Shown: positions 5,526 to 60,254 of the stretch, one piece after another
Position numbering within the stretch: position 1 is the stretch's first letter
Layout of the letters: the number at the start of each line of letters is the position of its first letter
NCBI GenBank assembly: GCA_044225365.1
Contig: JBGAIQ010000031.1
Location: 1-60,254, forward strand
Direction of reading: 5' to 3'
Length of the DNA: 60,254 bases
Source: Planctomycetota bacterium
GTDB lineage: Bacteria > Planctomycetota > B15-G4 > JADJEK01
The notes under the pieces: model-generated
What the model was told of the DNA's origin: nothing
Databases searched by the model: none
What the model saw: only the letters and a program-made list of their open reading frames with translations
Program-made: the position numbers and the translations under genes

Positions 5526-7334
5526 ATGTCTTCGACACGATTCTCCCGCACCGGCCTCGGTGCGGGCTTCTTCATTCTTTGTTCCAGCGCGTTCGCGCAC
5601 CAGTTGCCGGCTCCCGGCATTGCCGGGATCGAGGTCATCGGCGAGAACATCGCGGGTGGCCCGGGCATCGTCTCCGCGATCTGGGATTTCGCGCCGAGCA
5701 CTCCGCTCGGATCCACGGTGCTGAGCGGACCGATCGATACGAGTCACAACTCCGGGCGCTGGCAGACGCCCGTCGGTCGAGGAATGGTCCCGATCTTCAG
5801 CGCGGGTCTTCCCGCTCCGATGGTTGCAGTCCCGACGACGGGGCCTGGCGGCGCGGTCAATGTCGAGTTCGTGAACTATCGGTCGGGTACGGTCCCCGCG
5901 TCCTCGATCGTGGTGGGTGTCGGCTTCGGGACGATGCCGTACGACCTGCTCGCGGCGAACGGTTTCGTCTACGCCTTCGTGCAGCCGGTCGGCGGCGGCC
6001 CCGCGATCGTGTACGAGATCACCGTACCCACGGGCGTCGCCAGCATCCCGTCGGTGACGGCCGGGTTCTTCTGCGCCTCTTTCGCGAGTCCGTACGTCTC
6101 CCGAATGCTGATCGATCCCACGACGGGCAACCTCGTCGTCGTCGAGAACGACCGGATCGAGACGTTCCCCACCGGCATCGGCGGCATCCCCGCGGTGATC
6201 AACAGCTTCGTATTCCCGACGAACGCGGGCGGCACGGCGTATCAGGCGGGTACCAACGCCGCGGCAGGATTCGTGGGCCCCGGCGGCCAGAACATGATCG
6301 TCGGCCTCCGTCAGCCGAATGGCGCGGTAGGTCACGCCTTCCTCGCGTTCTCGACCGGCGCTGGCGCCGCGGCTCCCATATTCTCCGGAGACAATCCGTT
6401 CGGGAATCGCGTTCTCGCTCCCGGGTTCCACGAGATCGCGATCTCGAACGGCTCGGCGTTTCCGGTGGCGACGTTCCTCGCCGATCAACTTCCGATCAGT
6501 ACGGGAGTCGGTGCGGTGGGTCAAGTCACGCTGAGCGGCGCGGCCTACAATGTGGTCACGACGAATTGTCCTCCACCGTACGGCGATCCGGAAGCGCGCC
6601 GCAACGCAACGGGTGATCCCGTCCTGTTCCTCTCGACTCTCGCGCCGAGCGCGAACGACGGCCTATGCGCGATCGGAACCGGCGCGGCGAACCCGCTCGG
6701 TGCTCTCGCGGTCAGCGGTGCACTGCCGGGACTCGTGGTTTCCACGCAGTGTGATCGCCCGATCAGCTTGCCGGTGGTGGGTCCGAATCACGAAGCGGTG
6801 GTCAGTGTCGGTGCGGGTGGATTCGTGGGGACGGTCGTATTCCCGATCGGTCCGGGTCCGGCGATCGGGGCTCCGACGCCATCGCCAGCCATCGGCAACG
6901 GTCCGGCAACGACCCTTCCGAACGCTCTCATCGGCGGATTGCTCGGTCCGCAGCCCGTCTTCGCGCAGGGCTTTCAGAATCTCGCCGGCGCCGGCCTCGG
7001 CCTCTCGGATCAACTCGTGCTCGGCGCGCCGCTCTCGGCCCCGCCGTCGTTCGTCTTGCTGAATCCGACGGTCGCGATGTCGCCGATCCCGGCCGGTCCG
7101 CTCGTTCTCGTGCCGCCGAATCCCGCGGCGCTCAACCCGGCGCTCGGCGCGCGCTCGACCTTCAATTTCATCAACGGCATCTCGACCGCCCCCGTCGTCG
7201 TCCATCCCCAGCACTTCTTCTTCGGGGCGATCTTTGGATTCAGCGGATTGATCGTGGAGAACCCGTTCGTTCCCTTCGGGACGCAGGCGTACTTCACGGC
7301 CAACCCGATCGTGACCGAGACCTACTCGTACTGA
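5526..7334 (+). CDS. Secreted Gly/Pro/Ala/Val-rich beta-rich protein of unknown function; lysine-free
   Basis: GGAGG RBS at 5516-5520. Signal peptide ending SSAFA. Coding-like codon usage. Confidence 0.8.
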   Translation: MSSTRFSRTGLGAGFFILCSSAFAHQLPAPGIAGIEVIGENIAGGPGIVSAIWDFAPSTPLGSTVLSGPIDTSHNSGRWQTPVGRGMVPIFSAGLPAPMVAVPTTGPGGAVNVEFVNYRSGTVPASSIVVGVGFGTMPYDLLAANGFVYAFVQPVGGGPAIVYEITVPTGVASIPSVTAGFFCASFASPYVSRMLIDPTTGNLVVVENDRIETFPTGIGGIPAVINSFVFPTNAGGTAYQAGTNAAAGFVGPGGQNMIVGLRQPNGAVGHAFLAFSTGAGAAAPIFSGDNPFGNRVLAPGFHEIAISNGSAFPVATFLADQLPISTGVGAVGQVTLSGAAYNVVTTNCPPPYGDPEARRNATGDPVLFLSTLAPSANDGLCAIGTGAANPLGALAVSGALPGLVVSTQCDRPISLPVVGPNHEAVVSVGAGGFVGTVVFPIGPGPAIGAPTPSPAIGNGPATTLPNALIGGLLGPQPVFAQGFQNLAGAGLGLSDQLVLGAPLSAPPSFVLLNPTVAMSPIPAGPLVLVPPNPAALNPALGARSTFNFINGISTAPVVVHPQHFFFGAIFGFSGLIVENPFVPFGTQAYFTANPIVTETYSY

Positions 7335-7441
7335 GTCGCTCGGCACGAACGCAAGGAAGCAGGGGGCCGGACATCGCTCGCGATGTCCGGCTTTTCTCGT
7401 GCAACGGGTCGTTACGCCGCTCGAATCCCGTCGTTTCGATC

Positions 7442-7450
7442 TGGCATAAT
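7442..7450 (+). promoter_or_regulatory. Possible extended -10 element upstream of the ECF sigma operon
   Basis: TGGCATAAT (TGn-CATAAT) in GC-rich DNA, ~60 nt before GTG 7512. Confidence 0.3.
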
Positions 7451-7511
7451 GGGTCGCTTCCTCGCACGTTCGCGGGGATTCACCCCACGATTCCCGAAAC
7501 TCCCCGCCGCT

Positions 7512-8096
7512 GTGACGACATCCACGGATACGGACTCGAAGTCCACGCGAGAGAACGACTTCACCGTCGTTCGGCTCGCAATCGATGGTTCGCGCGACGC
7601 AAGGGCGGCACTCGCGACCCGGCTGAAGGTGATCGGTCGGATCGTGACGGTTCTCAACCGGCGCCATTCCGGGCTCCTTTCAGCGCACGACCTCGAAGAT
7701 GTGATCCAGGACACCGTGGCCGCGGTGCTCTCGAAGCTGGCGACGTTTCGCGGTGAGTGCGCGCTCGAGACGTGGGTGTATTCGTTCTGCGTGAACGTCT
7801 TCCAGAACGCGCGACGAAAACACCAGCGACGCCGCCGGAAGGAGAGCTTCGACGGCGCGGAGATGGAGGACGAGACGTGGCCCGAAGATCGAACTCACGA
7901 GCGAGAAGCGATCGAGTCGTCGCTGCTCCGCGTGGGACCTCCCGCATCGGAAGTGATTCGGGAGCGAGTATTCCTCGGCTGGACGTTCGCCGAGATCGGA
8001 TCGCGCCGGAACGTCGCGGAGGCGACGATCAAGACGTGGTACTACCGCGGCATCAAGGAGCTCGGCGCCCTGCTTGCGAAGGATCAAGCGACGTGA
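7512..8096 (+). CDS. ECF-type RNA polymerase sigma factor
   Basis: Region 2 DLEDVIQDT...FRGECALETWVY and region 4 HTH WTFAEIG...EATIKTWYYRG. Start could be 7449 or 7512. Confidence 0.9.
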   Translation: MTTSTDTDSKSTRENDFTVVRLAIDGSRDARAALATRLKVIGRIVTVLNRRHSGLLSAHDLEDVIQDTVAAVLSKLATFRGECALETWVYSFCVNVFQNARRKHQRRRRKESFDGAEMEDETWPEDRTHEREAIESSLLRVGPPASEVIRERVFLGWTFAEIGSRRNVAEATIKTWYYRGIKELGALLAKDQAT

Positions 8097-8782
8097 AGGA
8101 CCCACGCGACGAATCCCAGGAGGCGCTCTTGCGCAAAGTCGCTCTCGGCGAGATTCCGGCATCCGCTCCGGAGGTCCGGGCGGCCGCGGATTCGTCGCCA
8201 GAGTTCGAGTCGGCTCTCGGGCGAATCGTTTCGACGCTCGAAGGCCTGACGGCGGCGCGATCGCATCGGGACTCGGTTCTCGAGGAATCCGCGCGTCTCG
8301 TCGGCTCGGAGTTCGATGCATCGATCGAACGGAGCGTTGCGAGTGAGTTCGAGCGTCTGGATCGGGAACGAAACGAACCGCGACCGATGAACCGGCCGTG
8401 GCGGCGCTATGCGGCCGCGGCGGCGATCCTGGTCATGGCACTCGGCGGTTGGTGGTTCTACGGTTCGCGGCGGTCGCCGGTCCTGCAATCGCCGACGTAC
8501 CTGGGCGGCGAGATCGAGTGCGTCGAACCCGTAGGAACCGTTCCCGAATTCAGGGGTTTCACGTGGCGGGGTTCCCCGCCCGCTGGCTGTTGGTACGAGG
8601 TGTCGATTCGCGATCCTTCCGGACGGGAAGTGGCGCATTCGGCGCATCTCACCGTGCCCGCGTACGAACCCACGCCCGAAGTGATCGCGAAATTGCCCTC
8701 GGAGATCGAATGGACCGTGCTCCTCAAGGATGGCGGCGGCACTCGCGGCACGGGCACGGCGCGCGCCTCGCGGTCTCACTGA
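8093..8782 (+). CDS. Putative single-pass anti-sigma factor with a small extracytoplasmic beta domain
   Basis: GTGA overlap with the sigma stop. ~100-aa helical N-terminus, TM helix YAAAAAILVMALGGWWFY, FN3/Ig-like C-terminus (FTW...WYEVSI...IEWTV). Confidence 0.75.
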   Translation: MKDPRDESQEALLRKVALGEIPASAPEVRAAADSSPEFESALGRIVSTLEGLTAARSHRDSVLEESARLVGSEFDASIERSVASEFERLDRERNEPRPMNRPWRRYAAAAAILVMALGGWWFYGSRRSPVLQSPTYLGGEIECVEPVGTVPEFRGFTWRGSPPAGCWYEVSIRDPSGREVAHSAHLTVPAYEPTPEVIAKLPSEIEWTVLLKDGGGTRGTGTARASRSH

Positions 8783-11133
8783 TTCGCACTCCCTGGTTCG
8801 TCGTCGCCTGCTCGTTCCTCGCTTCGGCGAATCTCTCCGTTCACGCCATCGCGCAGGATGCACCGGCGGCGGGGCGGACCGAGGACGATGCGGCCGAGGT
8901 GCGCGAGCTCGAGAAGGCGCGTGAAGAATTGACGAACCTCGCTGCCGCCGCCCTCGATCCTTCCAACACGCTCTGGAGTGCTTTCTCGCGCGCGTCGCAG
9001 TTGCGGGAACGCGGGCGGTTCGTCGCCGCCGAAGCGTGGCTCGCCACGGTGTCGAAGTTCGCGGCGAGAACGCCGGCCCGAGACGTGTTCGGCTTGTACG
9101 TCGCGGGCGAGCGCATGCAGATCTGCGTGCATCGCGGGGCCCTCGACCGCGCCGCGGTGTTCCTGAACGAGGTCGTCGCTCATTTCGACGCCGTCGCCAA
9201 GGACGATCCGAACCGCGATTACGCGATCTGCTCGCGGGCTCTCTACGAGGCCGATTATCGACTCGCGGTCCTCGACTTCGACGGAACGATCGAGGTCTGT
9301 GATCGAGCGGAGAGGGAACTCGCGGGGCGGCCCATTCCGCGCGAGATGACTCGGGAATTCGAGACCCGGCGATTGGCGGCGCTCTACGCACTCGGTCGGC
9401 GCGACCCGCGTTCGAATGCGAAGCGCGCGAGCGAGGCGCTGCGGGCCGGTCTGGAGACCGAAGGTCTCGCCACCGGGGTGAGGATTCGACGCGCCGTCGA
9501 ACTCGCCACGCTCGAGTTCGCGGATTCCGACCCGGTCGCGGCTCGTTCGTCGCTCGATCTCGTGAAGCCCCTCCTCGATTCGAAGGATGGGACGGCCGCG
9601 GCGGAGCTGCGCGCATGGTGGCTCGCGGTGCGGATCCGCCTCGCACGTTTCGAAGGCGATCGCCGGGAGATCGTCGCGCTGCGCGATTCGATTCGTGACG
9701 CGTTTGCGATCGCCAAGGGCGCGCGACTCGCGGCGACGGTCGACGCGTCGTCCGATCCGGCGGGATTCCTCCACTTCGCGGAGATCCAGGAGCCGCTCTT
9801 CGAGTGGCTGAGCGCGGAACTCGCGACGCGCACCGAGGAGGAGGCGTTCGAGCAGGCGCTCGCGGCGACGAGATCGGATGCGTTTTCTTCCAGTGCGGAT
9901 TCCGCATCGGATCTACCGGACTTGCGCGAGAGGGTCATCGGCGCAAACGGTGTTCTGCTCGTGTATCTGCCGTCGCCTGAAGGTACGCATCTCTTCGCGG
10001 TCGATGCGACGAGAGTCGCGCATTTCGCACTCCCGGCGGTGACCACTTTGAAGGCGTTCCGCGACGACCTCGATCCCTATCTCGACCGGCGACTGTCCGC
10101 CGAGGAGAGGTTGCGCTTCTCGCGTGCAGCAGAAGCGGCCGGCGCCATGTTCTTTCCCATGGAACTCCGGCAGTTCCTCGCGAATCGGACTTCGATCGCG
10201 ATCAGCGCGCTCGGACAACTGCACTCGGTACCGTTCGAACTCCTTCGAGTCGATGGTGTCGTTCTGGGAGCGCGTCGCGCGGTCTTTCGCGTTCCGTCGT
10301 CGTTTCGCGCGTCGCGGGATTCGCATGACGCGCAGAGCAACCCCTGCGTCATCGACTCGCAGGAGAGGATCCGACTCGTCGCGGCGACGCGACTCACGAA
10401 CTCACAACGCATGACATTCCCTGGCTTGCCCGACCTTCCGCTCGAAGCCGAGGAGATCTTGGCGATCGGATCGGCACTTCCGGATGGCGCATTCAAGGTG
10501 TTCCTCGGAGACGATGCCGATTTCGCCGCCCTTTGCACTCCCGATTCCACGCGAGTGCTCGAGATCCTGGCGCATGGCGTTTCCGACCCGTCGGGTCTCG
10601 GATCGCAAGCAATCGTCCTCGCTCCGTCGCGTTCGCCCAGCAGCGCGAGTCGGGATGGCGACGGTCTGCTCCGCTACGAAGACATCACCAGGCTCCGCGC
10701 GCCGCCGCTCGTCGTGCTCGCGTCATGCAATGCCGGGAACGGCCCGTTCCGGGCCGGCAACGAGCACATCCTCGATCTCACGGGTGCATTCCTGCAGCAC
10801 GGAGCATCCTGCGTCGTCCTCGCGACCCGCAGGATCGAGACGGCGAGCGCCGCCTCGATGCTCGCGGCGATCGACCGACGGCTCTTTCTCGGCGACGCTC
10901 CGGCGGAAGCGTTGCGAGCCGCACGCGAGGAGCTCCTGGGACGCAGCGAGTTCGTCGATCCGGTGGACCAGGGCTTCGTCGTGATCGGAGACGGGCTACG
11001 GCCGGTGTTCGCGAGACCGCCCGCGCCGTCGAACTCCCATGGAACGCGAATCGGCACGGCGATCGCGGTGATCGTCGTGGCGATGGTTGGCGTCATCGTT
11101 CGCGCGCGCCGGCGCGCGGCCTCACGGACCTGA
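8710..11133 (+). CDS. CHAT-domain (caspase-like) protease with helical TPR-like N-half, signal peptide and C-terminal TM anchor
   Basis: LHSVPFELL, catalytic His in EILAHG (10573-10575), catalytic Cys in VVLASC (10726-10728), LTGAFLQHGA, ALRAAR. C-terminal TM followed by RARRR. Start is ATG 8710 (GGAG RBS) or CTG 8779. Confidence 0.88.
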   Translation: MDRAPQGWRRHSRHGHGARLAVSLIRTPWFVVACSFLASANLSVHAIAQDAPAAGRTEDDAAEVRELEKAREELTNLAAAALDPSNTLWSAFSRASQLRERGRFVAAEAWLATVSKFAARTPARDVFGLYVAGERMQICVHRGALDRAAVFLNEVVAHFDAVAKDDPNRDYAICSRALYEADYRLAVLDFDGTIEVCDRAERELAGRPIPREMTREFETRRLAALYALGRRDPRSNAKRASEALRAGLETEGLATGVRIRRAVELATLEFADSDPVAARSSLDLVKPLLDSKDGTAAAELRAWWLAVRIRLARFEGDRREIVALRDSIRDAFAIAKGARLAATVDASSDPAGFLHFAEIQEPLFEWLSAELATRTEEEAFEQALAATRSDAFSSSADSASDLPDLRERVIGANGVLLVYLPSPEGTHLFAVDATRVAHFALPAVTTLKAFRDDLDPYLDRRLSAEERLRFSRAAEAAGAMFFPMELRQFLANRTSIAISALGQLHSVPFELLRVDGVVLGARRAVFRVPSSFRASRDSHDAQSNPCVIDSQERIRLVAATRLTNSQRMTFPGLPDLPLEAEEILAIGSALPDGAFKVFLGDDADFAALCTPDSTRVLEILAHGVSDPSGLGSQAIVLAPSRSPSSASRDGDGLLRYEDITRLRAPPLVVLASCNAGNGPFRAGNEHILDLTGAFLQHGASCVVLATRRIETASAASMLAAIDRRLFLGDAPAEALRAAREELLGRSEFVDPVDQGFVVIGDGLRPVFARPPAPSNSHGTRIGTAIAVIVVAMVGVIVRARRRAASRT

Positions 11134-27758: not shown

Positions 27759-28199
27759 GAGTTCAGGCTCTTGCGTTCCTTGTCGACCGTTCACGGTTCG
27801 GGTCGTCCGGCGACCGACTCCGAGCCGCGGATGCATCGATGGACCGCTTCATCGACTCCATTCATCGAGACTCGACGAAGTACGTACCCCGGCCGCGAGA
27901 GTTGGTGGGTCCGTCGATCTCGTTCTCGGAGTGGTCGAGAGGTCCCGACTGGAGTTCCAGGGCGAGATCTTCCCGCTTCGTTCGATTCATGATGCGCTGG
28001 AGAAACGTCGATGAAGACCGTGCCGAATTCCCAAACCGGAGGTCTTCACGACTCTGTCGGTTGCCATCGACGCGGTCCGGATCGAGGGCGCTCACAAAAA
28101 AGGTGAGTGCTCGCGCGAACGTCGTTGCCTCGTTTCGCATGGGGCGCACGAGCTACCGGTTGCTTCCTTCCCATCGCGAATGAGATCGAAGGAACGGCG

Positions 28200-29633
28200 A
28201 TGACGACTCCGTTCCTGCTCATGTTGTGTGTGCTCGGGCAGAGCAGTCCGCCCGTGCCGGACACGCTCGATCTCCATGTGGCGCACATTCGGCGCGTCAG
28301 TGGCTCGTTGTACAACGGAGCCCTGCAGTCTTGGACGCTCGAGCAATTCGTCGCGAATGCGTGGACGCCGTTGAACTCCGGCGACTTCCTCGCGCCGCTA
28401 CCCAAGGTCAAGGCCGGAGCGGTCGACATCTCGGTTCCCGCGAATCAGGCGAGTCTCAGTGCCGGCGTCTCGCGCCTCCGCATCCACCTCTTCCCGCGCG
28501 GCGAGGGCGTCCTCGTTCCGGTGGAACTCGGTTCGGTGCCGTTCGCACTGGTCGTCGGGAACTCGACCGGCAGCGCTGGACCGGTGGGGCCAACGGGGCC
28601 AACGGGGCCAACGGGGCCGACGGGGCCACAGGGTCCGAAGGGCGATCCGGGAGCGGACGGCGCCGCGGGCGCGCCCGGTGCCCAAGGTCCTCCAGGACCC
28701 GCGGGTCAGGACGGAGCGATAGGACCGGCTGGATCCACTGGACCCGCAGGACCGACAGGACCGACAGGACCCGCCGGTCCCGCGGGAGCGGACGGAGCCC
28801 AAGGACCGCCCGGACCTCAAGGTCCGCCGGGGACGGCCGGAACACAGGGTCCCCAAGGCCCCGCCGGCGCCGATGGGGCGCCCGGTGCAACGGGCGCAAC
28901 GGGCGCAACGGGCGCAACGGGCGCGGACGGCGCAACGGGACTGCAAGGCCCTCCGGGCGCGGACGGCGCAACGGGACCGCAGGGACCCGCCGGCGCGCAA
29001 GGTCCTCCGGGTGCGGATGGCGCAACCGGACCGCAAGGTGCCACGGGACCGCAGGGTCCCGCTGGAGCCGACGGCGCAACCGGTCCGCAAGGTCCGGCCG
29101 GCGCGGATGGCGCAACGGGAGCGCAGGGACCCAGCGGACCGCAAGGGCCCGCGGGTTCCGACGGAGCGACCGGTCCTCAGGGCCCCGCCGGTCCCACGGT
29201 TCGCACGCTCGTCACGCTCTCTGCGGACGTCACGAACAACAATGCGGTCGCGAATACGATGGCGAACGTCACCGGTCTCAGCTTCAGCGTGACCGCCGGG
29301 TCGACGTATCGTTTCTACGCCGTCGTTCTCTATACCTCCGCGGCGACGACGACGGGCTCGCGCTGGTCGGTGAGCGGCCCCGCCGCGCCAACGCTCCTCA
29401 GCTACACCTCGCACTACCCGCTCACGGCGACGACGCAGACGACGAACAACGCCTCCGCGTACGACATTCCGGCGGCGTCGAACACGAGCTCCGCTTCGAC
29501 GGCCGGCAACATTGCAACGATCGAGGGCATCGTCACACCCTCCGCGAGCGGAACGCTCACCCTTCGCTTTGCTTCAGAGGTTGCGAATTCGGCGATCACG
29601 GCGAAGGCGGGCAGCACGCTCGAGTGGTGGTGA
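28200..29633 (+). CDS. Secreted collagen-like triple-helix protein with N- and C-terminal beta domains
   Basis: Signal peptide, ~70 uninterrupted Gly-X-Y triplets (28569-29198), Thr/Ser/Ala-rich C1q/BclA-like C-terminal beta domain. Confidence 0.92.
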
Positions 29634-39296: not shown

Positions 39297-40475
39297 TCAC
39301 CTCTCCGGCCAGCGCCAGGTCGGCTTGCTGAGGATCGTTTGGCCGACGAGGTGAGTCTCGCCGAAGTCCTTCTCGAGGGAGAGGATCGTGGCGTCCCCGT
39401 CCGCTTCGAGCGCGGCGATGAGGATCTTCGAATGCGTGATCACCCACACCTGGCCTCGGCTCGCCGCGCGCTGGATGAGGCGAGCGAGCGCCGGAAGGAG
39501 GTCGGGATGCAGGCTCGTCTCCGGTTCGTTGAGGACCATGAGCGACGGCGGCTGCGGCGTGAGTAGCGCGGCGATCCACATGAGGTACCGCAGCGTGCCG
39601 TCGGAGAGTTCCGCGGTCCGCATCGGTCTCAGGAGTCCGCGCTGGGTCATGAGCAGTTCGAAGCGACCGTCGGATTCGAGGATCTCGATGGAGCCGCCGG
39701 GAAATGCATCCGTCACGGCGTCGACGAGCGCCTTGCGATCGCCATTCTCCCAAATCGTCTGCACGGCCGCCGCGAGGTCGCTTCCGTCGTGGCCGAGGAC
39801 CGGTGTCCGGGTGCCGATCTGCGACTGCCTCGCCGGCGCTCCGGCATCGGTGCGGAAATGGTCGTAGAAGCGCCAGGAGCGGATGAAGTCGCGCAGGCGA
39901 TAGACCGCGGGCGAAGTGGAGGGATCACCGATCTCGGTGAGGATGCTGTGATACGAAGCAAGCGTGGTCAGGACGGTGTCGAACGAATCTCGCGCGTTCC
40001 GCACGCGAACCGACGCGCCCCGCCGATCGACGATCATCCCGCTCGGATTCAGCGTCGTGCCCGCGAAGATGCACTCCGCCTTCAGGATCGGGTCCTTCGT
40101 GAACTTGGTCGCCTCGGGATGGGGCGGGGGAGGTGGGGGCAGTCCGACGTCGACGATGTATCCGAGCTCGTTCGTCGAGAAGCCGAGCAGGAGTCGAATG
40201 GGGCCGGTGCGCGGCCCGCCCTGCACGGGATGAAGTCCGCTTCGCATCGCCCGACTGATCTTCTCCGGTCCCGCCCACAGCGTTTGCGCGAGGCCTCCTT
40301 CCCGCGCGAGCGATGCGATGAGGTTGCCCGAGGCCGTGTCCGCGAGCAGCCGCAGCGAACGATAGAGGTTCGACTTCCCGACGCCGTTCTCGCTCGTCAC
40401 GACGTTGAGCCGGCCGAGCCCGAGGGTGAGCTCTCGGATCGAGCGATAGTTCGCGATCGCGAGGGTGGTGATCAA
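39297..40475 (-). CDS. ABC-type/SMC-like ATPase (COG4637/AAA_21-like)
   Basis: NYRSI, Walker A-like SENGVGKS, signature LSDGT, Walker B variant LMVLNEPETSLHP, ITHS. Confidence 0.88.
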   Translation of the reverse strand: MITTLAIANYRSIRELTLGLGRLNVVTSENGVGKSNLYRSLRLLADTASGNLIASLAREGGLAQTLWAGPEKISRAMRSGLHPVQGGPRTGPIRLLLGFSTNELGYIVDVGLPPPPPPHPEATKFTKDPILKAECIFAGTTLNPSGMIVDRRGASVRVRNARDSFDTVLTTLASYHSILTEIGDPSTSPAVYRLRDFIRSWRFYDHFRTDAGAPARQSQIGTRTPVLGHDGSDLAAAVQTIWENGDRKALVDAVTDAFPGGSIEILESDGRFELLMTQRGLLRPMRTAELSDGTLRYLMWIAALLTPQPPSLMVLNEPETSLHPDLLPALARLIQRAASRGQVWVITHSKILIAALEADGDATILSLEKDFGETHLVGQTILSKPTWRWPER

Positions 40476-55296: not shown

Positions 55297-55662
55297 TCAC
55301 CCGCAGCGGCGCTTCAGTTCCTCGGCCGTGATCGAATGATGCGAAGCGTGCCACAGCACTTTTCCATTCTCGATCAGGATCGCCTGGGGCGATTCATGGC
55401 GCACTTTCAGGCGCTCGGCGATGGCGAGCGAGATCGGCCGCTGTTCGACGACGAGGACGCGAGCCGTTCTCGCCCGATCGGCGCCCGCGGAACTCAGCCA
55501 GTCCTCGTATTCCCGATTCGCGTGGGAGCTGATCGGGCAGCGAGTCGAGTGCTTGAAGAGCAACCACTTGCCGCCGCCCTCGGAGTTCAGCAGGGGATCC
55601 AGCTGGTCCATGGCGGTGAGTTCGAGGTCGGGTCGGGCGTTTCGTGGGTCTGCAAGGGTCAT
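55297..55662 (-). CDS. ytxJ: Monothiol bacilliredoxin YtxJ/BrxC (DUF2847)
   Basis: LFKHSTRCPIS, VRHESPQAILI, WHASH. Confidence 0.92.
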   Translation of the reverse strand: MTLADPRNARPDLELTAMDQLDPLLNSEGGGKWLLFKHSTRCPISSHANREYEDWLSSAGADRARTARVLVVEQRPISLAIAERLKVRHESPQAILIENGKVLWHASHHSITAEELKRRCG

Positions 55663-55792
55663 GGGCGAGAGGTTCCAAGGCTGCCGGTCGATTTCGAGAA
55701 CCGGGCTATAAGATAGCTTCGACCGGCGCGCCGACGGGCATGACCGGGCAACGATACGACACGACACGATGAAAACGATCCGGAGGATTGCG

Positions 55793-56434
55793 ATGGCGAA
55801 CTACGACGACATGCCGAACTACGACGAGGACGCAGTGGCTCCGATGCGCAGTGAGCTCGTCAAGGTAGGTTTCCAGGAGCTGCGGACGGCGGAAGCCGTC
55901 GACCAGCTGTTCGCGAATACGCAGGGCACGTCCCTCGTCATCATCAACTCGGTGTGTGGCTGCGCCGCGGGCGGTGCGCGCCCCGGTGTGTCGCTCGCAC
56001 TCCAGAACGGGAAGATCCCCGACCGTCTCGCGACGGTCTTCGCGGGCCAGGACAAGGCTGCTGTCCGGCAGTTCCGCGCCAAGCTGAACAGCGTTCCTCC
56101 ATCGTCGCCGTTCATCGCGGTGTTCAAGGATGGCAAGCCGGTGAAGGTGATGCAGCGCCACGATATCGAGGGCAAGGACGCCAATCGAATCGCGGCCGAA
56201 TTGACGGAGGCGTTCGATGCGACGTGTTCGCGTTCGGGCCCCTCGATCCCGCGCGAGGAGTTCGAGAAGCTTGTCGGCGTGAAGGCCTGTGGGTCGAAGA
56301 TCCCGCCGCACACCGTCAAGATCCAGGGCATGGAGACCGGCCCGTCCGCATCGCGTCCATCGGCCGCTCCGCAGAGCGCGCCGAGCGGGGCGGAGGGCGA
56401 TGACAAGAAGGGCTGGTGGAAGCTGTTCAAGTGA
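55793..56434 (+). CDS. Bacilliredoxin BrxA/BrxB family (DUF1094) with a C-terminal extension
   Basis: GGAGG RBS, PMRSEL...GFQEL, INSVCGCAAGGARP, TVFAGQD, PPSSP, RHDIEG. Confidence 0.93.
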   Translation: MANYDDMPNYDEDAVAPMRSELVKVGFQELRTAEAVDQLFANTQGTSLVIINSVCGCAAGGARPGVSLALQNGKIPDRLATVFAGQDKAAVRQFRAKLNSVPPSSPFIAVFKDGKPVKVMQRHDIEGKDANRIAAELTEAFDATCSRSGPSIPREEFEKLVGVKACGSKIPPHTVKIQGMETGPSASRPSAAPQSAPSGAEGDDKKGWWKLFK

Positions 56435-57137: not shown

Positions 57138-58754
57138 ATGAGCGCCTCCGCCGCACGGCCCTACAACCTCGCATCCGACCTCCTCGATCGGCATCTGCTG
57201 AAGGGGCGCGGTGAGCGCGCCGCGCTCGTGTTCGAGGACAGCGCCGGGTTCACGCAGCGATTCACGTATCGCGAGCTGTCGGTGCTCGCCAACCGATTCG
57301 CCTTCGTGTTGCGGGGCCTCGGAGTGGTGCGCGGGGATCGCGTCCTGTTCCGTGTTCCGAATCATCCAGCGTTCTACTACGGCGCACTCGGCTGCGCGCG
57401 CATCGGGGCCGTATTCGTGCCGACGAGTACGCTCTTCAAGGATCGCGAGGTCGAGTATCGCTTGAAGGATTCCGGCGCGGTCGTCGCCGTCACGACATCC
57501 AGTCTGGCGCCGGCGATCGCCGCGGCACGGACCGCGGCCCCCGATCTGCGCGAAGTACTTTGTGTCGACGACATGGGCGAGGAATCGCTCGGCTCGAACT
57601 CGGCGCGCGGGATGAAGAGCCTCTCGCGGGCGATCCTCGGCGCGAAGGACCACGTGCCCGGCGCGGACACGTCGGGGGAAGATCCGGCATTCCTCGCGTA
57701 CAGCAGTGGGACCACCGGCGATCCGAAGGGCATTCTCCATTTGCAGCGTTATGGTCGCGCGTACGACTACCTGATCTCCGAGTGGCACGCCTATCGCGAC
57801 GGTGATGTGGTCGCGTGTCCCGCCGAGATCGGATGGATGCTGCCCGTCGCGTCGACGTTTCTCTACGCCTTGCGCGCGGGGATCACGGTGCTGCTCTATC
57901 GCGAACGCGAGCCCTCGTTCCGCCCCGCGAAGTGGTTCGAACTCCTCGCGCGCCATCGCGTCACGAACTTCGTGGGGACGCCGACGATCTATCGCATGCT
58001 GCTCACCGTCGAGGACGCAGAACGTCGCTTCGATCTGAAGGCGCTGCGTCACGGCACATCGGCGGGGGAGCCGTTGCCCGCGCCCACGTTCGATGAAGTG
58101 AAGCGTCGTCTCGGCTTCCCTCCGCTCGATGGGATCGGGATGAGCGAGTGCATGGTCTACGCGCACAACCGCGCGGGGGAGTCGATCGTGCCGGGATCGT
58201 GCGGGCGCGCGGGGACGGGGCTCGAACTCGAGGTGTTCGACGTGCGCGACGAATCCTTGCGACCCGTCGGGATCGGCGACGAAGGCGTACTCTGCGTGAA
58301 GCGATCGACGCACGAAGGACTGATGCGCGAATACTGGAAGAAGCCGAGTGCAACTGCCGAGGTGCTTCGCGGCGAGTGGTACGTGTCCGGCGACGTGGTG
58401 CGCCGCGACGCGGACGGTCGATTCACCTTCGTCGCTCGCGCCGACGACGTGATGAAGTGCTCGGGATATCGCATCTCACCCTTCGAGGTGGAGAGCGCTC
58501 TGCAATCCCATCCGGCGGTTCTCGAGGCGGCCGCCGTCGAATGGCGCGATGAGCTTCGCGGCAACGTGATCAAGGCGTTCGTGACGCTCCGCGATCCCGC
58601 CGCGGCCCACGCCGATCTCGCCACAGCCCTGTCGGCACACGTTCGCTCGCTGCTCGCACCGTTCAAAGCGCCGAAGCACGTCGAATTCGTGCCCACATTG
58701 CCGAAGACCCAGAGCGGGAAGATCAAACGCCGCGAGCTCCGCGACGGCCGCTAA
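57138..58754 (+). CDS. Acyl-CoA synthetase (medium-chain/benzoate-CoA ligase-like)
   Basis: YSSGTTGDPKG, SAGEPL, DGIGMSE, WYVSGD, ISPFEVE, LPKTQSGK. Confidence 0.93.
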   Translation: MSASAARPYNLASDLLDRHLLKGRGERAALVFEDSAGFTQRFTYRELSVLANRFAFVLRGLGVVRGDRVLFRVPNHPAFYYGALGCARIGAVFVPTSTLFKDREVEYRLKDSGAVVAVTTSSLAPAIAAARTAAPDLREVLCVDDMGEESLGSNSARGMKSLSRAILGAKDHVPGADTSGEDPAFLAYSSGTTGDPKGILHLQRYGRAYDYLISEWHAYRDGDVVACPAEIGWMLPVASTFLYALRAGITVLLYREREPSFRPAKWFELLARHRVTNFVGTPTIYRMLLTVEDAERRFDLKALRHGTSAGEPLPAPTFDEVKRRLGFPPLDGIGMSECMVYAHNRAGESIVPGSCGRAGTGLELEVFDVRDESLRPVGIGDEGVLCVKRSTHEGLMREYWKKPSATAEVLRGEWYVSGDVVRRDADGRFTFVARADDVMKCSGYRISPFEVESALQSHPAVLEAAAVEWRDELRGNVIKAFVTLRDPAAAHADLATALSAHVRSLLAPFKAPKHVEFVPTLPKTQSGKIKRRELRDGR

Positions 58755-59113
58755 GCGGACCGCCGGGCTCTGCCCGGCATCTTCGGAGTTCGGGATCGTG
58801 CCACCATGGGAAGGACAGCACGTCGGGCGCGCACGGGGAGCTCCGTTCGACTCCGCGCGCGGAGGACCGCGCATGCTGCGCGAACGGACTCCCCGATGCG
58901 CTTCCTGTCCTTCGAGGGGAAAGGTCATGCGGAGGCCCACTTGAAATGGAAAGGCGCCTTGGCTGGATGCCGCGGACGGCACCCCAGCCAAGGCTTTCCC
59001 CACGTGTCTTCGCGACGAACCTTATGGGGTAGGTAGGAACGCGGTCACCTTGCGCGCCCGTAGCACGGTCATCTTTGAAGGCGGCCCGGATACCGGGGTC
59101 TACCCTTTTGTCG
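58755..59113 (+). repeat. ~350-bp structured non-coding element, copy A
   Basis: Begins immediately after the TAA stop with GGACCGCCGGGCTCTGCCCGGC. Homologous to copies B and C. Confidence 0.9.
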
Positions 59114-59117
59114 ACTT

Positions 59118-59184
59118 GGACCGCCGGGCTCTGCCAGGCATTTTCTGGCGCCGCCAAATTTCTTCGGGAACGCGCCACCGTAGA
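59118..59184 (+). repeat. Truncated fourth copy (REP-like head plus first segment)
   Basis: GGACCGCCGGGCTCTGCCAGGC ... CTTCGGGAACGCGCCACCGT matches the 5' end of copy C. Confidence 0.7.
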
Positions 59185-59186
59185 CC

Positions 59187-59549
59187 GGGCCGCCGGGCCC
59201 TGCCCGGCATCTTCGGACTTCGGAGAACGTGCGCCGTGGATAGGACAGCACGTCGGGCGCGCGCGGGAGCTCCGCGCTCCGCACGCATGAGCGCGCATCT
59301 GCGCGAACGGATCCTCCGCGCGCTGCCATCCCGTCGAGAGGAATGTTCGTGGGGGCAACTTCGAAATGGCCTGAGACGCATTGGGAAGGGCGTGCCGCGG
59401 ACGGCACCCCCGCCAAGGCTTTCCCCACGTGTCTTCGCGACGAACCTTATGGGGTAGGTAGGAACGCGGTCACCTTGCGCGCCCGTAGCACAGTCATCCT
59501 TGAAGGCGGCCTGGATAGCGGGGTCTACCCTTCGTCGGCGTGATATGGA
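59187..59549 (+). repeat. ~350-bp structured element, copy B (5' half diverged)
   Basis: Same head and order of stems. 3' core is essentially identical to copy A. Confidence 0.88.
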
Positions 59550-59824
59550 CCGACCTGCTGCGACCACAATCTCCCGTGTCGGGCTGTCCCTTCGCGGCGG
59601 CCACCGAACTCGAGCATCCTCTCGTCGAAGTGCAACAGCATGATGTCGTCTTCTGGATCAAAACCACGGCCCGCTTGCGGTGATCGGTTGCGGCAGGGGT
59701 TCGTCGTGGTTCGTCGCAGAGTCACTGGCAGTGCGCTGCCATCGGTCTCGCAGTTTTGCCCTGCGATAAATCCGCCTGAACGCAGCAAAGGCGCGATACT
59801 GTCGGGCTGGCCGTTTAAGAAGAC

Positions 59825-59846
59825 GCCGGGCAGAGCCTGGCGGTTC
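59825..59846 (-). repeat. Solo REP-like hairpin
   Basis: Reverse complement reads GAACCGCCAGGCTCTGCCCGGC. Confidence 0.7.
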
Positions 59847-59863
59847 GACCCTGATCGTCGCAT

Positions 59864-60229
59864 TCCTATCTCACGCTGACGAAAGGTAGACCCCGCTAAA
59901 AGGGCCGACTTCAAAGAGGACCGTGCTACGGGCGCGCAAGGTGACCGTGTTCCTACCTACCCCATAAGGTTCGTCGCGAAGACACGTGGGGAAAGGCTTG
60001 GCTGGGGTGCCGTCCGCGGCACTCCAGGCAAGGCGCCTCGATCCATTTCAAAGTGGGCCTCCATGACCTTTCCCTTCGAAGGGAAAGAAGCGCATCGGGG
60101 AGTCCGTTCGCGCAGCATGCGCGGTCCTCCGCGCGCGGAGTCGAACGGAGCTCCCCGTGCGCGCCCGACGTACTGTCCTATCCACGGTGGTACGTTCCCG
60201 AAGTTGCCGGGCAGAGCCCGGCGGTCCGC
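59864..60229 (-). repeat. ~350-bp structured element, copy C (inverted)
   Basis: Reverse complement aligns with copy A over its full length. Confidence 0.9.
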
Positions 60230-60254
60230 CATTCACGGTGGCGCAATCCCTAAA

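Follow-up and report, generated by a model that had tools for sequence, protein, structure and literature searches.

A Planctomycetota-like contig ends in a 1.5-kb array of a hairpin-rich, non-coding repeat unit of ~360 bases, present as three full units (A, B, and C) and two solo 5′ (L) modules. Judged from the sequences searched, the repeat is a new family with a narrow distribution, being found on four contigs in total and in 0 of 185,579 species genomes. Block-wise conservation of sequence is what stands out among the copies; conservation of pairing does not. The array is tentatively read as a small, lineage-restricted family of paralogous ~0.3-kb noncoding RNA (ncRNA) genes, locally duplicated and bounded by hairpins, with a small mobile element as the main alternative. 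The window analyzed, i.e., the whole stretch of 60,254 nucleotides, ends with the following features:

57138-58754, forward strand: acyl-CoA synthetase gene (AMP-binding), stop codon adjoining unit A, same orientation
58755-59116, forward strand: unit A, beginning right behind the TAA stop of the synthetase gene
58755-58811, forward strand: L module of unit A, containing hairpin 58762-58778
58812-58833, forward strand: 5′ box of unit A
58829-58901, forward strand: long hairpin H2 of unit A
58957-58993, forward strand: hairpin iii of unit A
58994-59066, forward strand: core of unit A, including the 3′ box at 59051-59060
59077-59108, forward strand: 3′ hairpin of unit A
59117-59185, forward strand: solo L module 1, directly 3′ of A, hairpin 59123-59139 with one stem mismatch
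59186-59548, forward strand: unit B, a diverged paralogue
59546-59613, forward strand: possible, strongly degenerate L module after B, stem destroyed, alignment support weak
59614-59782, no strand: spacer of unique DNA between the converging B and C arrays
59783-59855 (about), reverse strand: solo L module 2, directly after C, hairpin 59825-59841
59864-60229, reverse strand: unit C, an inverted copy, hairpin 60206-60222, TCGA-loop palindrome 60068-60087
60230-60254, reverse strand: end of an L-like module upstream of C, GCGCCACCGT being common to it and the end of solo L module 1

The initial annotation had placed three full copies and one fragment here; the copies lie as listed, the sequence features it described were all recovered at their coordinates, and fragments are indeed present, numbering two rather than one, namely the solo L modules at 59117-59185 (forward) and ~59783-59855 (reverse). 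Solo L module 1 comprises the hairpin, ATTTTCT, and a ~46-nt L-like stretch, and stops exactly where a body would start. The hairpin of solo L module 2 has one stem mismatch, at the base pair also mismatched in solo L module 1, and its position is occupied by a further unit in the contig of P0125, one of three relatives described below. The window terminates inside the L-like module upstream of C, and P0125 has a further hairpin just past that point. Both in the window and in P0123-P0125, head-to-tail units follow one another without intervening unique DNA. The degenerate L module after B was itself in the nhmmer profile, so its nhmmer match arises by construction and was not counted. The spacer at 59614-59782 showed no significant unit likeness beyond the L module, no Rfam match, and no Pfam match among its four ORFs. 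A fourth, decayed copy in this spacer was considered and rejected: its global alignment score of 54.5 (shuffles: mean 30.3, maximum 48.5) stemmed solely from the L module in the first ~65 nt.

Units A and C are ~90% identical over 362 nt (blastn E = 4e-137), and A and B align with E = 7e-96. The remaining 58.7 kb of the contig (1-58754) contain no further copy by blastn at word size 7 or by nhmmer --max. A 28-nt core word occurs three times in the window, with zero expected from shuffles, and a 17-nt hairpin, GCCGGGC-TCT-GCCCGGC, lies at five places (eight strand-wise matches versus 0.95 expected) with no copy in the other 58.7 kb. The element is multi-copy and hairpin-rich, as first described. 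An assembly artifact, named at the outset as a possible refutation, is rejected because the copies differ from one another and because related tandem units are present in three independent NCBI contigs.

The non-coding assignment and the frame-shifting indels first noted were likewise borne out. GC per codon position is flat, at 0.62-0.69 whichever of the six frames of A, B, or C is read, as compared to a GC3 of 0.73-0.91 in the likely genes of the contig (a set whose selection required GC3 ≥ 0.72). Pfam gave nothing at or near its cut-offs on seven translated frames or ORFs of the units, and the ESM Atlas gave no usable match for the translations, with a low recognition score. That the units are fragments or pseudogenes of a protein gene read antisense is extremely improbable. 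On the antisense strand, an open frame runs through C (59880 to the contig end), A, and B, and three NCBI contigs have it annotated as ORFs of 213-297 aa. However, in addition to the flat GC profile and the empty Pfam and Atlas searches, the frames of A, B, and C differ after the core, the antisense frame of C has no start codon until 60063, and R, G, P, and A are abundant in the translated sequences.

These three spurious antisense ORFs (P0123-P0125), one per NCBI contig and each covering two units in head-to-tail order, are the only relatives recovered; they are the three family matches found by this route among 1.84 billion representative proteins, and their units are known from protein translations (back-translation) alone. 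The units most like C in these long contigs share 80-92% pseudo-protein identity. Back-translation suggests that hairpin iii is absent from the P0125 unit and that an identical stretch of 9 nt is inserted into the CCTTATGG loop of two units, in P0123 and P0124. A further candidate, P0126 (1897 aa, 21 stretches, E = 7.6e-17), proved to be a genuine repeat protein and is no relative. Among the 185,579 species genomes, an exact 21-nt core word had no match, and of 336 matches to patterns back-translated from the antisense “protein” alignment none was confirmed by tblastn. The relative P0123 differs inside that word (R to G). Plasmid and phage collections gave no match (blastn, distant mode). The initial annotation recognized no known family, in agreement with Rfam 15, which had no match at gathering score over the whole window and nothing credible at E ≤ 10: seven matches over 58600-60254 were all far below gathering score, the best being to a plant miRNA model (27.5 bits versus a cut-off of 53). 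No description of such an element was found in the literature, a search that cannot be made by sequence and hence is no proof of novelty.

Constraint along the unit is uneven. Between A and C, the 5′ hairpin, 5′ box, H2, and core together show 2 substitutions per 187 aligned positions, as compared to 29 per 157 elsewhere (chi-square over eight segments, p = 1e-6, the blocks having been picked post hoc). B matches A at 72/72 positions of the core and 21/22 of the 5′ box, at 65% in H2, and at 54% in the middle. The near-invariant core noted at the outset is therefore real (58994-59066 in A; 71/72 or 72/72 identity between copies), and TGCCG-CGGA-CGGCA, AGGACAG(C/T)ACGTCGGGCGCGC, and GAAATGG are found in all three copies. 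In diverged units of P0123 and P0124 the core agrees at 37/43 and 38/45 determined positions; as it varies there, its identity within the window could stem from gene conversion. The best-conserved blocks are mostly internal, the 5′ hairpin excepted, which fits an RNA core better than transposon ends.

Less probable than either an RNA gene or a mobile element is a functionless tandem or inverted duplication of intergenic DNA, partly homogenized by gene conversion and slowly decaying, in which the hairpins would be inherited palindromes and the first of them the terminator of the synthetase gene. The near-identical tracts of 110-140 nt between neighbors A and B (96%) would fit conversion tracts; B has largely decayed in its 5′ two thirds, stem changes are mostly uncompensated, the solo L hairpins carry mismatches, and the family is as rare as the protein search indicates. 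Against decay, the unit remains recognizable in three other long contigs at the pseudo-protein identities given above, and H2 is identical at 69/69 positions between A and C and at 34/35 and 35/35 determined positions in two other NCBI contigs, whereas neighboring A/C blocks differ by about a quarter.

The claim that selection acts on structure was not supported, and the “conserved pairing” apparent in the three copies breaks down once pairs are counted. Of the 113 pairs in an RNAalifold consensus built from A, B, and C, 2 show changes on both sides, a number reached by 62 of 500 shuffles; the covariation score was 0.080 versus 0.066, with n = 3 sequences and hence little power. Ten pairs change to G-U, and 19 cells are left unpaired, 10 of them A.C, equivalent to G-U on the other strand; with 10 G-U in sense and 10 in antisense, the wobble evidence is symmetric and neither strand is favored. 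Folding energies were consistent with this symmetry, the sense folds of the three copies having z-scores of -2.95, -0.95, and -2.96 and the antisense folds z-scores as good or better (-3.9, -1.5, and -5.1), such that no strand preference emerged from either energy or G-U pairs. Copy B had been said to diverge while keeping its pairing; this rests on one A-U to G-C exchange, and its hairpin domains score z = -0.8 and 0.0 relative to shuffles.

For H2, folding stability greatly exceeds that of shuffled sequences in A (z = -6.1) and C (z = -4.0). The invariant core shows no such excess; if it differs from shuffles at all, it is toward less structure (z = +0.5 to +1.7). As first observed, the TCGA-loop hairpin pairs perfectly in C (60068-60087) but imperfectly in A and B; between units A and C, it and the TTGG...CCAA stem each hold uncompensated changes. 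A 10-bp long-range helix (helix 6) has both of its strands conserved in all three copies. Within a unit there is just one long inverted repeat, which in C is 28 nt with 79% complementarity (59917-59944 with 60152-60179); its equivalent in A pairs 58812-58839 with 59045-59072, 57 and 44 nt from the unit ends.

The main rival to the RNA-gene reading, possible but doubtful, is a non-autonomous element of the IS200/IS605 type (PATE-like), in which a Y1 transposase encoded at another site in the genome would recognize the same-strand end hairpins as folded single-stranded DNA; the conserved inner part of the element might encode an omega RNA scaffold that serves TnpB or IscB in trans. The same hairpin marks the 5′ end of each unit and recurs, in unchanged orientation, behind the bodies of A and C, copies occur in both orientations, truncated and decayed copies are present, and the P0125 contig carries a unit where the window has a solo L module alone. 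The distribution is narrow, the contig breaks off within the array, as expected at a repeat, and stem decay is uncompensated and without strand bias, as in DNA palindromes. On the other side, none of the 40 ORFs of the 60-kb contig encodes a transposase, reverse transcriptase, TnpB, IscB, integrase, or recombinase; conservation is highest in internal blocks, 5′ hairpin apart; and every copy belongs to a single 1.5-kb cluster, the other 58.7 kb being free of them. No consensus target motif emerges from the left flanks (CTAA in A, AGAC in B, and AATG in C; three copies, two of them adjoining other modules, so that the true boundary is uncertain). The HEARO and IS605-associated RNA models, which we take to be part of Rfam, gave no match even at E ≤ 10.

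Gene-less PATE-like elements, often encoding omega RNAs, have been described among non-autonomous IS200/IS605 elements (PMC10055086). The present units are comparable in being gene-less, a few hundred bases long, with same-strand end hairpins, without terminal inverted repeats or target duplication, and with a conserved inner part that is possibly an RNA scaffold. Same-strand subterminal hairpins are present in A (58762-58778 and 59123-59139) and C (60206-60222 and 59825-59841), while in B the left hairpin alone is intact. Unlike PATEs, the units show no consensus motif among the left flanks of the three copies and no tnpA, tnpB, or iscB in 60 kb, they are clustered head to tail rather than dispersed, and the end direct repeat runs ~45 nt past the hairpin; dispersal to many target sites was not seen within this contig, where all copies lie in 58755-60254. 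RAYT-mobilized REP/BIME elements are 20-40-nt palindromes bearing GTAG or CGTC as an unpaired tag on one side (PMC3733652). The short GC-rich stem-loop directly after a stop codon, repeated and clustered, is similar, whereas the present hairpin always accompanies the ~300-nt body or what remains of it and has no copy in the other 58.7 kb. REP/BIME membership was rejected in that the five hairpins have no consistent tag, their 3′ tetranucleotides being CATC (three), CGTC (one), and CAAC (one); GTAG is seen once, 10 nt upstream of the hairpin of B. HUH/RAYT mobilization, suggested at the outset, stays conjectural, the 60-kb contig encoding no transposase and the hairpin carrying no consistent tag of either kind. 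The units are not MITEs either, having no terminal inverted repeats at their ends (the long inverted repeat is internal) and no flanking target-site duplication.

A DNA-level site array, in which the core and hairpins would serve as protein-binding or recombination sites (att-like, integron-like, or partition), is improbable. Sequence rather than pairing is conserved and direct L repeats flank each body, like attL and attR, features that such an array would share; conversely, the window encodes no integrase or recombinase, ~360 nt is long for a binding-site repeat, and none of the 34 GTTRRRY matches in the window falls in 58755-60254 on either strand. In integron attC arrays, GTTRRRY and RYYYAAC core sites bound an imperfect hairpin and the cassettes all have the same orientation; an integron cassette array was rejected on the missing GTTRRRY matches and the inversion of C. 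A retron msr-msd RNA, in which stem-loops lie between inverted repeats beside a reverse transcriptase gene, was also rejected: a long-range inverted repeat (helix 6) exists, but no reverse transcriptase domain was found in the 40 ORFs and no ORF adjoins the units.

The preferred reading, as an ncRNA gene array, remains tentative and would work as follows. Each L module would consist of a 7-bp GC hairpin, a T-rich stretch, and ~40 nt more, its hairpin being a putative terminator or insulator between units. The body would be closed by the 10-bp long-range helix through pairing of the 5′ box CGGGCGCGCA with the 3′ box TGCGCGCCCG, and would hold replaceable hairpins (H2, the TCGA hairpin, and hairpin iii) together with a conserved, weakly structured ~55-nt stretch as the putative working part, i.e., a protein or target binding site; the unit would end in a 3′ hairpin and a short tail. 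Unequal recombination between the ~60-nt L modules may gain or lose units locally. We infer transcription of the units, the strand used, a terminator role for the L hairpins, and any function. Counted for this reading are the non-coding character, uneven constraint, conserved helix 6, stable H2 in A and C, modular gain and loss of hairpins, clustering, lack of a transposase, reverse transcriptase, TnpB, or IscB, head-to-tail abutment, and T residues after the hairpin (two to five within 8 nt on the sense strand). Counted against it are non-significant covariation, no favored strand, antisense folds as good or better, hairpins of B no different from shuffles, variability of the core in P0123 and P0124, and the inverted copy C, for which tandem duplication alone is insufficient. 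Also weighing against it, no sigma-70-like promoter site was found in 58600-60254, and the terminator scan did not flag the L hairpins as canonical terminators, a scan that showed no excess of terminator-like sites in the contig (27 found versus ~35 expected from shuffles).

Beyond the array itself, and with correspondingly greater doubt, the units may represent a new class of large (~0.3 kb) ncRNA genes in uncultivated Planctomycetota, with a closing helix, exchangeable hairpins, and a ~55-nt single-stranded platform, acting alone (e.g., by sequestering a protein, cf. GGA below) or providing, within a gene-less mobile element, the guide-RNA scaffold for a nuclease that is encoded elsewhere and uses it in trans. 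If transcribed, they would add a large RNA family to a phylum with almost no described ncRNAs and offer a tidy example of how RNA-gene arrays evolve when the hairpin modules at their flanks recombine. If mobile, they would bring a gene-less single-strand transposon, which may supply a guide RNA in trans, to a new lineage. As the family is narrow, wider importance is limited unless a function emerges.

The arrangement is reminiscent of CcsR1-4 and the “cuckoo” RNAs of alphaproteobacteria, in which paralogous small RNAs are encoded in tandem behind a gene. Head-to-tail paralogues likewise lie directly downstream of a gene on the same strand, each hairpin-bounded and with a conserved single-stranded motif; the present units differ in being three to four times longer, in having one copy inverted, and in that their transcription is putative. 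HEARO, or IscB omega RNA, is a large, ornate, multi-copy RNA sometimes found without its ORF and is similar as a large multi-stem non-coding element in several copies; the units, however, match no such Rfam model at E ≤ 10, and no IscB gene was seen in the contig. BOX and ERIC are modular mosaic repeats dispersed in many copies; they share modules varying in number and presence, richness in palindromes, and intergenic location, whereas no sequence likeness exists and the present family is seen in arrays only. Finally, GGA occurs 16, 11, and 15 times per copy versus ~7 expected, with TCC at 6-7, an approximately twofold enrichment on one strand that was noted post hoc and is equaled or exceeded by CTT and GAA.

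Alignment of the repeat units with one another and with the remainder of the window resolved three full copies, one of them inverted, and two lone copies of the L module that heads each unit, as follows.

58755-59116, + strand: unit A, aligned over its full length with B and C
59186-59548, + strand: unit B, aligned over its full length with A and C
59864-60229, − strand: unit C, aligned over its full length with A and B
59117-59185, + strand: solo L 1, a lone L module directly 3' of A
~59783-59855, − strand: solo L 2, a lone L module directly 3' of C

All motifs listed in the initial annotation were present, and its description proved accurate, save that a single fragment had been counted where two were found. 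Unit A matched C at E = 4e-137 and B at E = 7e-96 (blastn), and a 28-nt core word occurred three times in the window versus zero expected; searches of the first 58.7 kb (blastn at word size 7 and nhmmer --max) returned no further copies. The L module, which makes up the initial ~60 nt of each unit, consists of a 7-bp GC hairpin (GCCGGGC-TCT-GCCCGGC) and ~45 nt beyond it. This hairpin is perfect at the head of the three full units, while both solo L modules carry one mismatch, at the identical base pair. An L module precedes every body and also follows the bodies of A and C; B is followed by a very degenerate one at most. Upstream of C, the last 25 nt before the contig end are similar to the final part of solo L 1. 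The contig stops at this point (60230-60254), within the L-like module, and the break is probably repeat-induced.

The units had been described as non-coding, and this was borne out by flat codon-position GC, inconsistent antisense frames and an empty Pfam search. GC at codon positions 1–3 was 0.62–0.69 in all six frames each of A, B, and C, as compared to a GC3 of 0.73–0.91 and a GC2 of mostly 0.4–0.55 in the likely-gene ORFs of the contig, which were picked by requiring GC3 ≥ 0.72. One antisense frame is open through each unit, and beyond the core (the near-invariant 3' stretch) this frame differs among the three copies. Seven translated frames or ORFs of the units yielded nothing at or near Pfam cut-offs. 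That the units are remnants of coding sequence is accordingly a very remote prospect. The repeat matched no Rfam family at the gathering score, with nothing credible at E ≤ 10. A search for the exact 21-nt core word through 185,579 genomes, one per species, returned no match, and the repeat unit had none in plasmid and phage collections. Because the open antisense frame is sometimes annotated as a gene, protein collections were queried with it, and three proteins encoded on three NCBI contigs were recovered (P0123, 213 aa; P0124, 297 aa; P0125, 229 aa), each from an ORF crossing two head-to-tail units. A fourth match, P0126, was discarded as a false positive, being a bona fide repeat protein. 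Patterns back-translated from these relatives gave 336 matches in the species genomes, none of which was confirmed; the three contigs are thus absent from the species representatives. The protein route is insensitive, the window's own three units being absent as called proteins, and is biased to tandem pairs, which give longer ORFs, so it carries little information on copy number. The units constitute a repeat family that is real, non-coding, narrowly distributed, and not previously filed.

The relatives, whose units are known via back-translation with about two thirds of bases fixed, also revealed variation in the array. Along the C side of the window, the tail that follows C and the sequence up to the contig end included, P0125 agrees at nearly every residue, and it continues past that end into another hairpin and then other sequence. 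In place of the window's solo L 2, another unit begins in P0125, indicating that array length varies between related genomes. By back-translation, the P0125 unit corresponding to C lacks exactly hairpin iii, the 5' box is missing from one P0123 unit together with the 5' strand of the long hairpin H2, and P0123 and P0124 share, in their downstream units, a 9-nt insertion within the CCTTATGG loop of the core (PPSSW in antisense translation). The P0123 and P0124 arrays may be orthologous or may represent a second subfamily. Copy number differing between relatives and a contig break at the array, together with hairpins at both ends on the same strand, copies in both orientations, and truncated remnants, are consistent with a gene-less element of the IS200/IS605 type; PMC10055086 describes such PATE-like elements, which often encode omega RNAs. 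However, the copies are clustered, the left flanks of the three copies, two of which abut other modules, show no shared motif, and the 40 ORFs scanned in the 60-kb window contain no transposase, reverse transcriptase, TnpB/IscB, or integrase domains and no nuclease gene of this type; this main rival appears doubtful. MITE, REP, integron attC, and retron readings are each missing a defining feature.

Substitutions between A and C were unevenly distributed over eight segments (chi-square p = 1e-6). The L hairpin (0/24), 5' box (1/22), H2 (0/69), and core (1/72) were nearly free of them, in contrast to the rest of L (7/27), the middle (12/51), hairpin iii (3/37), and the 3' hairpin (7/42); pooled, this amounts to 2/187 versus 29/157, for blocks picked after looking. 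Unit B retains the core (72/72) and 5' box (21/22), and H2 drops to 65%. At determined positions, the units of P0124 and P0125 closest to C match the window's H2 (34/35 and 35/35) and core (42/43 and 43/43), with the core less alike in the diverged units (37/43 in P0123, 38/45 in P0124). Selection or gene conversion could be holding these blocks constant. Functionless duplication homogenized by conversion is an unlikely account of the units, and an array of DNA sites an improbable one.

Selection had been proposed to act on structure, which the pair counts did not support: in the RNAalifold consensus of A, B, and C, a sample of three sequences with little power, 2 of 113 pairs change on both sides, a result equaled by 62 of 500 shuffles. 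Ten pairs show one-sided changes to G-U, and 10 of the 19 unpaired cells are A.C, i.e., G-U on the opposite strand (hand count from pair types). With these counts balanced, stem transitions favor neither strand, as would be expected of unselected DNA palindromes. Entire units folded more stably than their shuffles whichever strand was taken, the z-scores for A, B, and C being −2.95, −0.95, and −2.96 on the sense strand and −3.9, −1.5, and −5.1 on the antisense strand, with similar G-U counts on both. A and C both have a very stable H2 (z −6.1 and −4.0), B does not (−0.8), and the middle domain gave −3.45, 0.0, and −2.8 (A, B, C), while the invariant 3' part was structured no more, or even less, than shuffles (+1.7, +1.1, and +0.5). 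Relative to the perfect TCGA hairpin of C, that of A shows four changes, two of which are mismatches; the TTGG...CCAA stem is perfect in A, with two mismatches in the C copy. In all three copies the 5' box (CGGGCGCGCA) is complementary to part of the core (TGCGCGCCCG), forming a 10-bp long-range helix 6. Constraint is visible in the sequence, not demonstrably in the pairing.

Our tentative preference, short of an even chance, is that the units are a small family of paralogous candidate non-coding RNA genes, which would expand and contract via recombination between L modules. Consistent with putative RNA genes, the conserved blocks are mostly internal rather than terminal, peripheral hairpins are gained or lost in modular fashion about a closing helix and a weakly structured stretch that are both conserved, and each body is delimited by a GC hairpin and, after it, a T-rich run on one strand. 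Head-to-tail units abut with no unique DNA between them, and a single cluster holds all copies with no mobility gene nearby. Against RNA genes stand the lack of significant covariation and of a strand signal, a promoter scan of 58600-60254 that returned zero sites, and the inversion of C. GGA occurs 16, 11, and 15 times on the sense strand of A, B, and C versus ~7 expected from shuffles (~twofold), and its complement TCC 6–7 times per unit. GGA forms part of the CGGA loop in hairpin iii and is reminiscent, post hoc, of protein-sponge RNAs with GGA loops; enrichment is as strong or stronger for CTT and GAA.

The window spans one complete contig of 60,254 bp and resembles a chromosomal fragment from an uncultivated Planctomycetota-like bacterium. 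GC is 61–69% along its entire length, and no tRNA genes were found in it. In a protein database search, the best relatives of the acyl-CoA synthetase (57138-58754) reached at most 76% identity, those from Pirellulales and Planctomycetia ~53–55%. A domain scan of 40 ORFs identified a planctomycete-type ECF sigma factor, FG-GAP and HEAT repeat proteins, and a Ser/Thr kinase. Antisense within the synthetase gene, at its 3' end (58728-58746, − strand), is a terminator-like hairpin tailed by TTTGATCTT. Were A read on the minus strand, this hairpin would lie just downstream of it; it may reflect chance (one found in the region versus 1.4 expected). A 9-bp GC hairpin followed by CTTCTTCATT (5545-5566, + strand) is similar in style to the L hairpin (GC stem, CTTC-rich tail) but unrelated in sequence. 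A divergent thiol-redox pair, a BrxC-type bacilliredoxin and a disulfide isomerase family protein (55300-56431), lies just upstream of the synthetase, and several thioredoxin-like genes are also present on the contig. A large CHAT-domain (caspase-like) protein (8398-11130, + strand) is encoded directly 3' of a sigma-70-family factor (7383-8093, + strand). An AAA_21 ATPase (39300-40475, − strand; E 2e-23), of the kind named after AbiEii toxin/type IV toxin-antitoxin systems, could be defense-related. The ORF at 28107-29630 (+ strand) contains four stretches of collagen triple-helix repeats (Pfam E 5e-33), which are unusual, though known, in bacteria.
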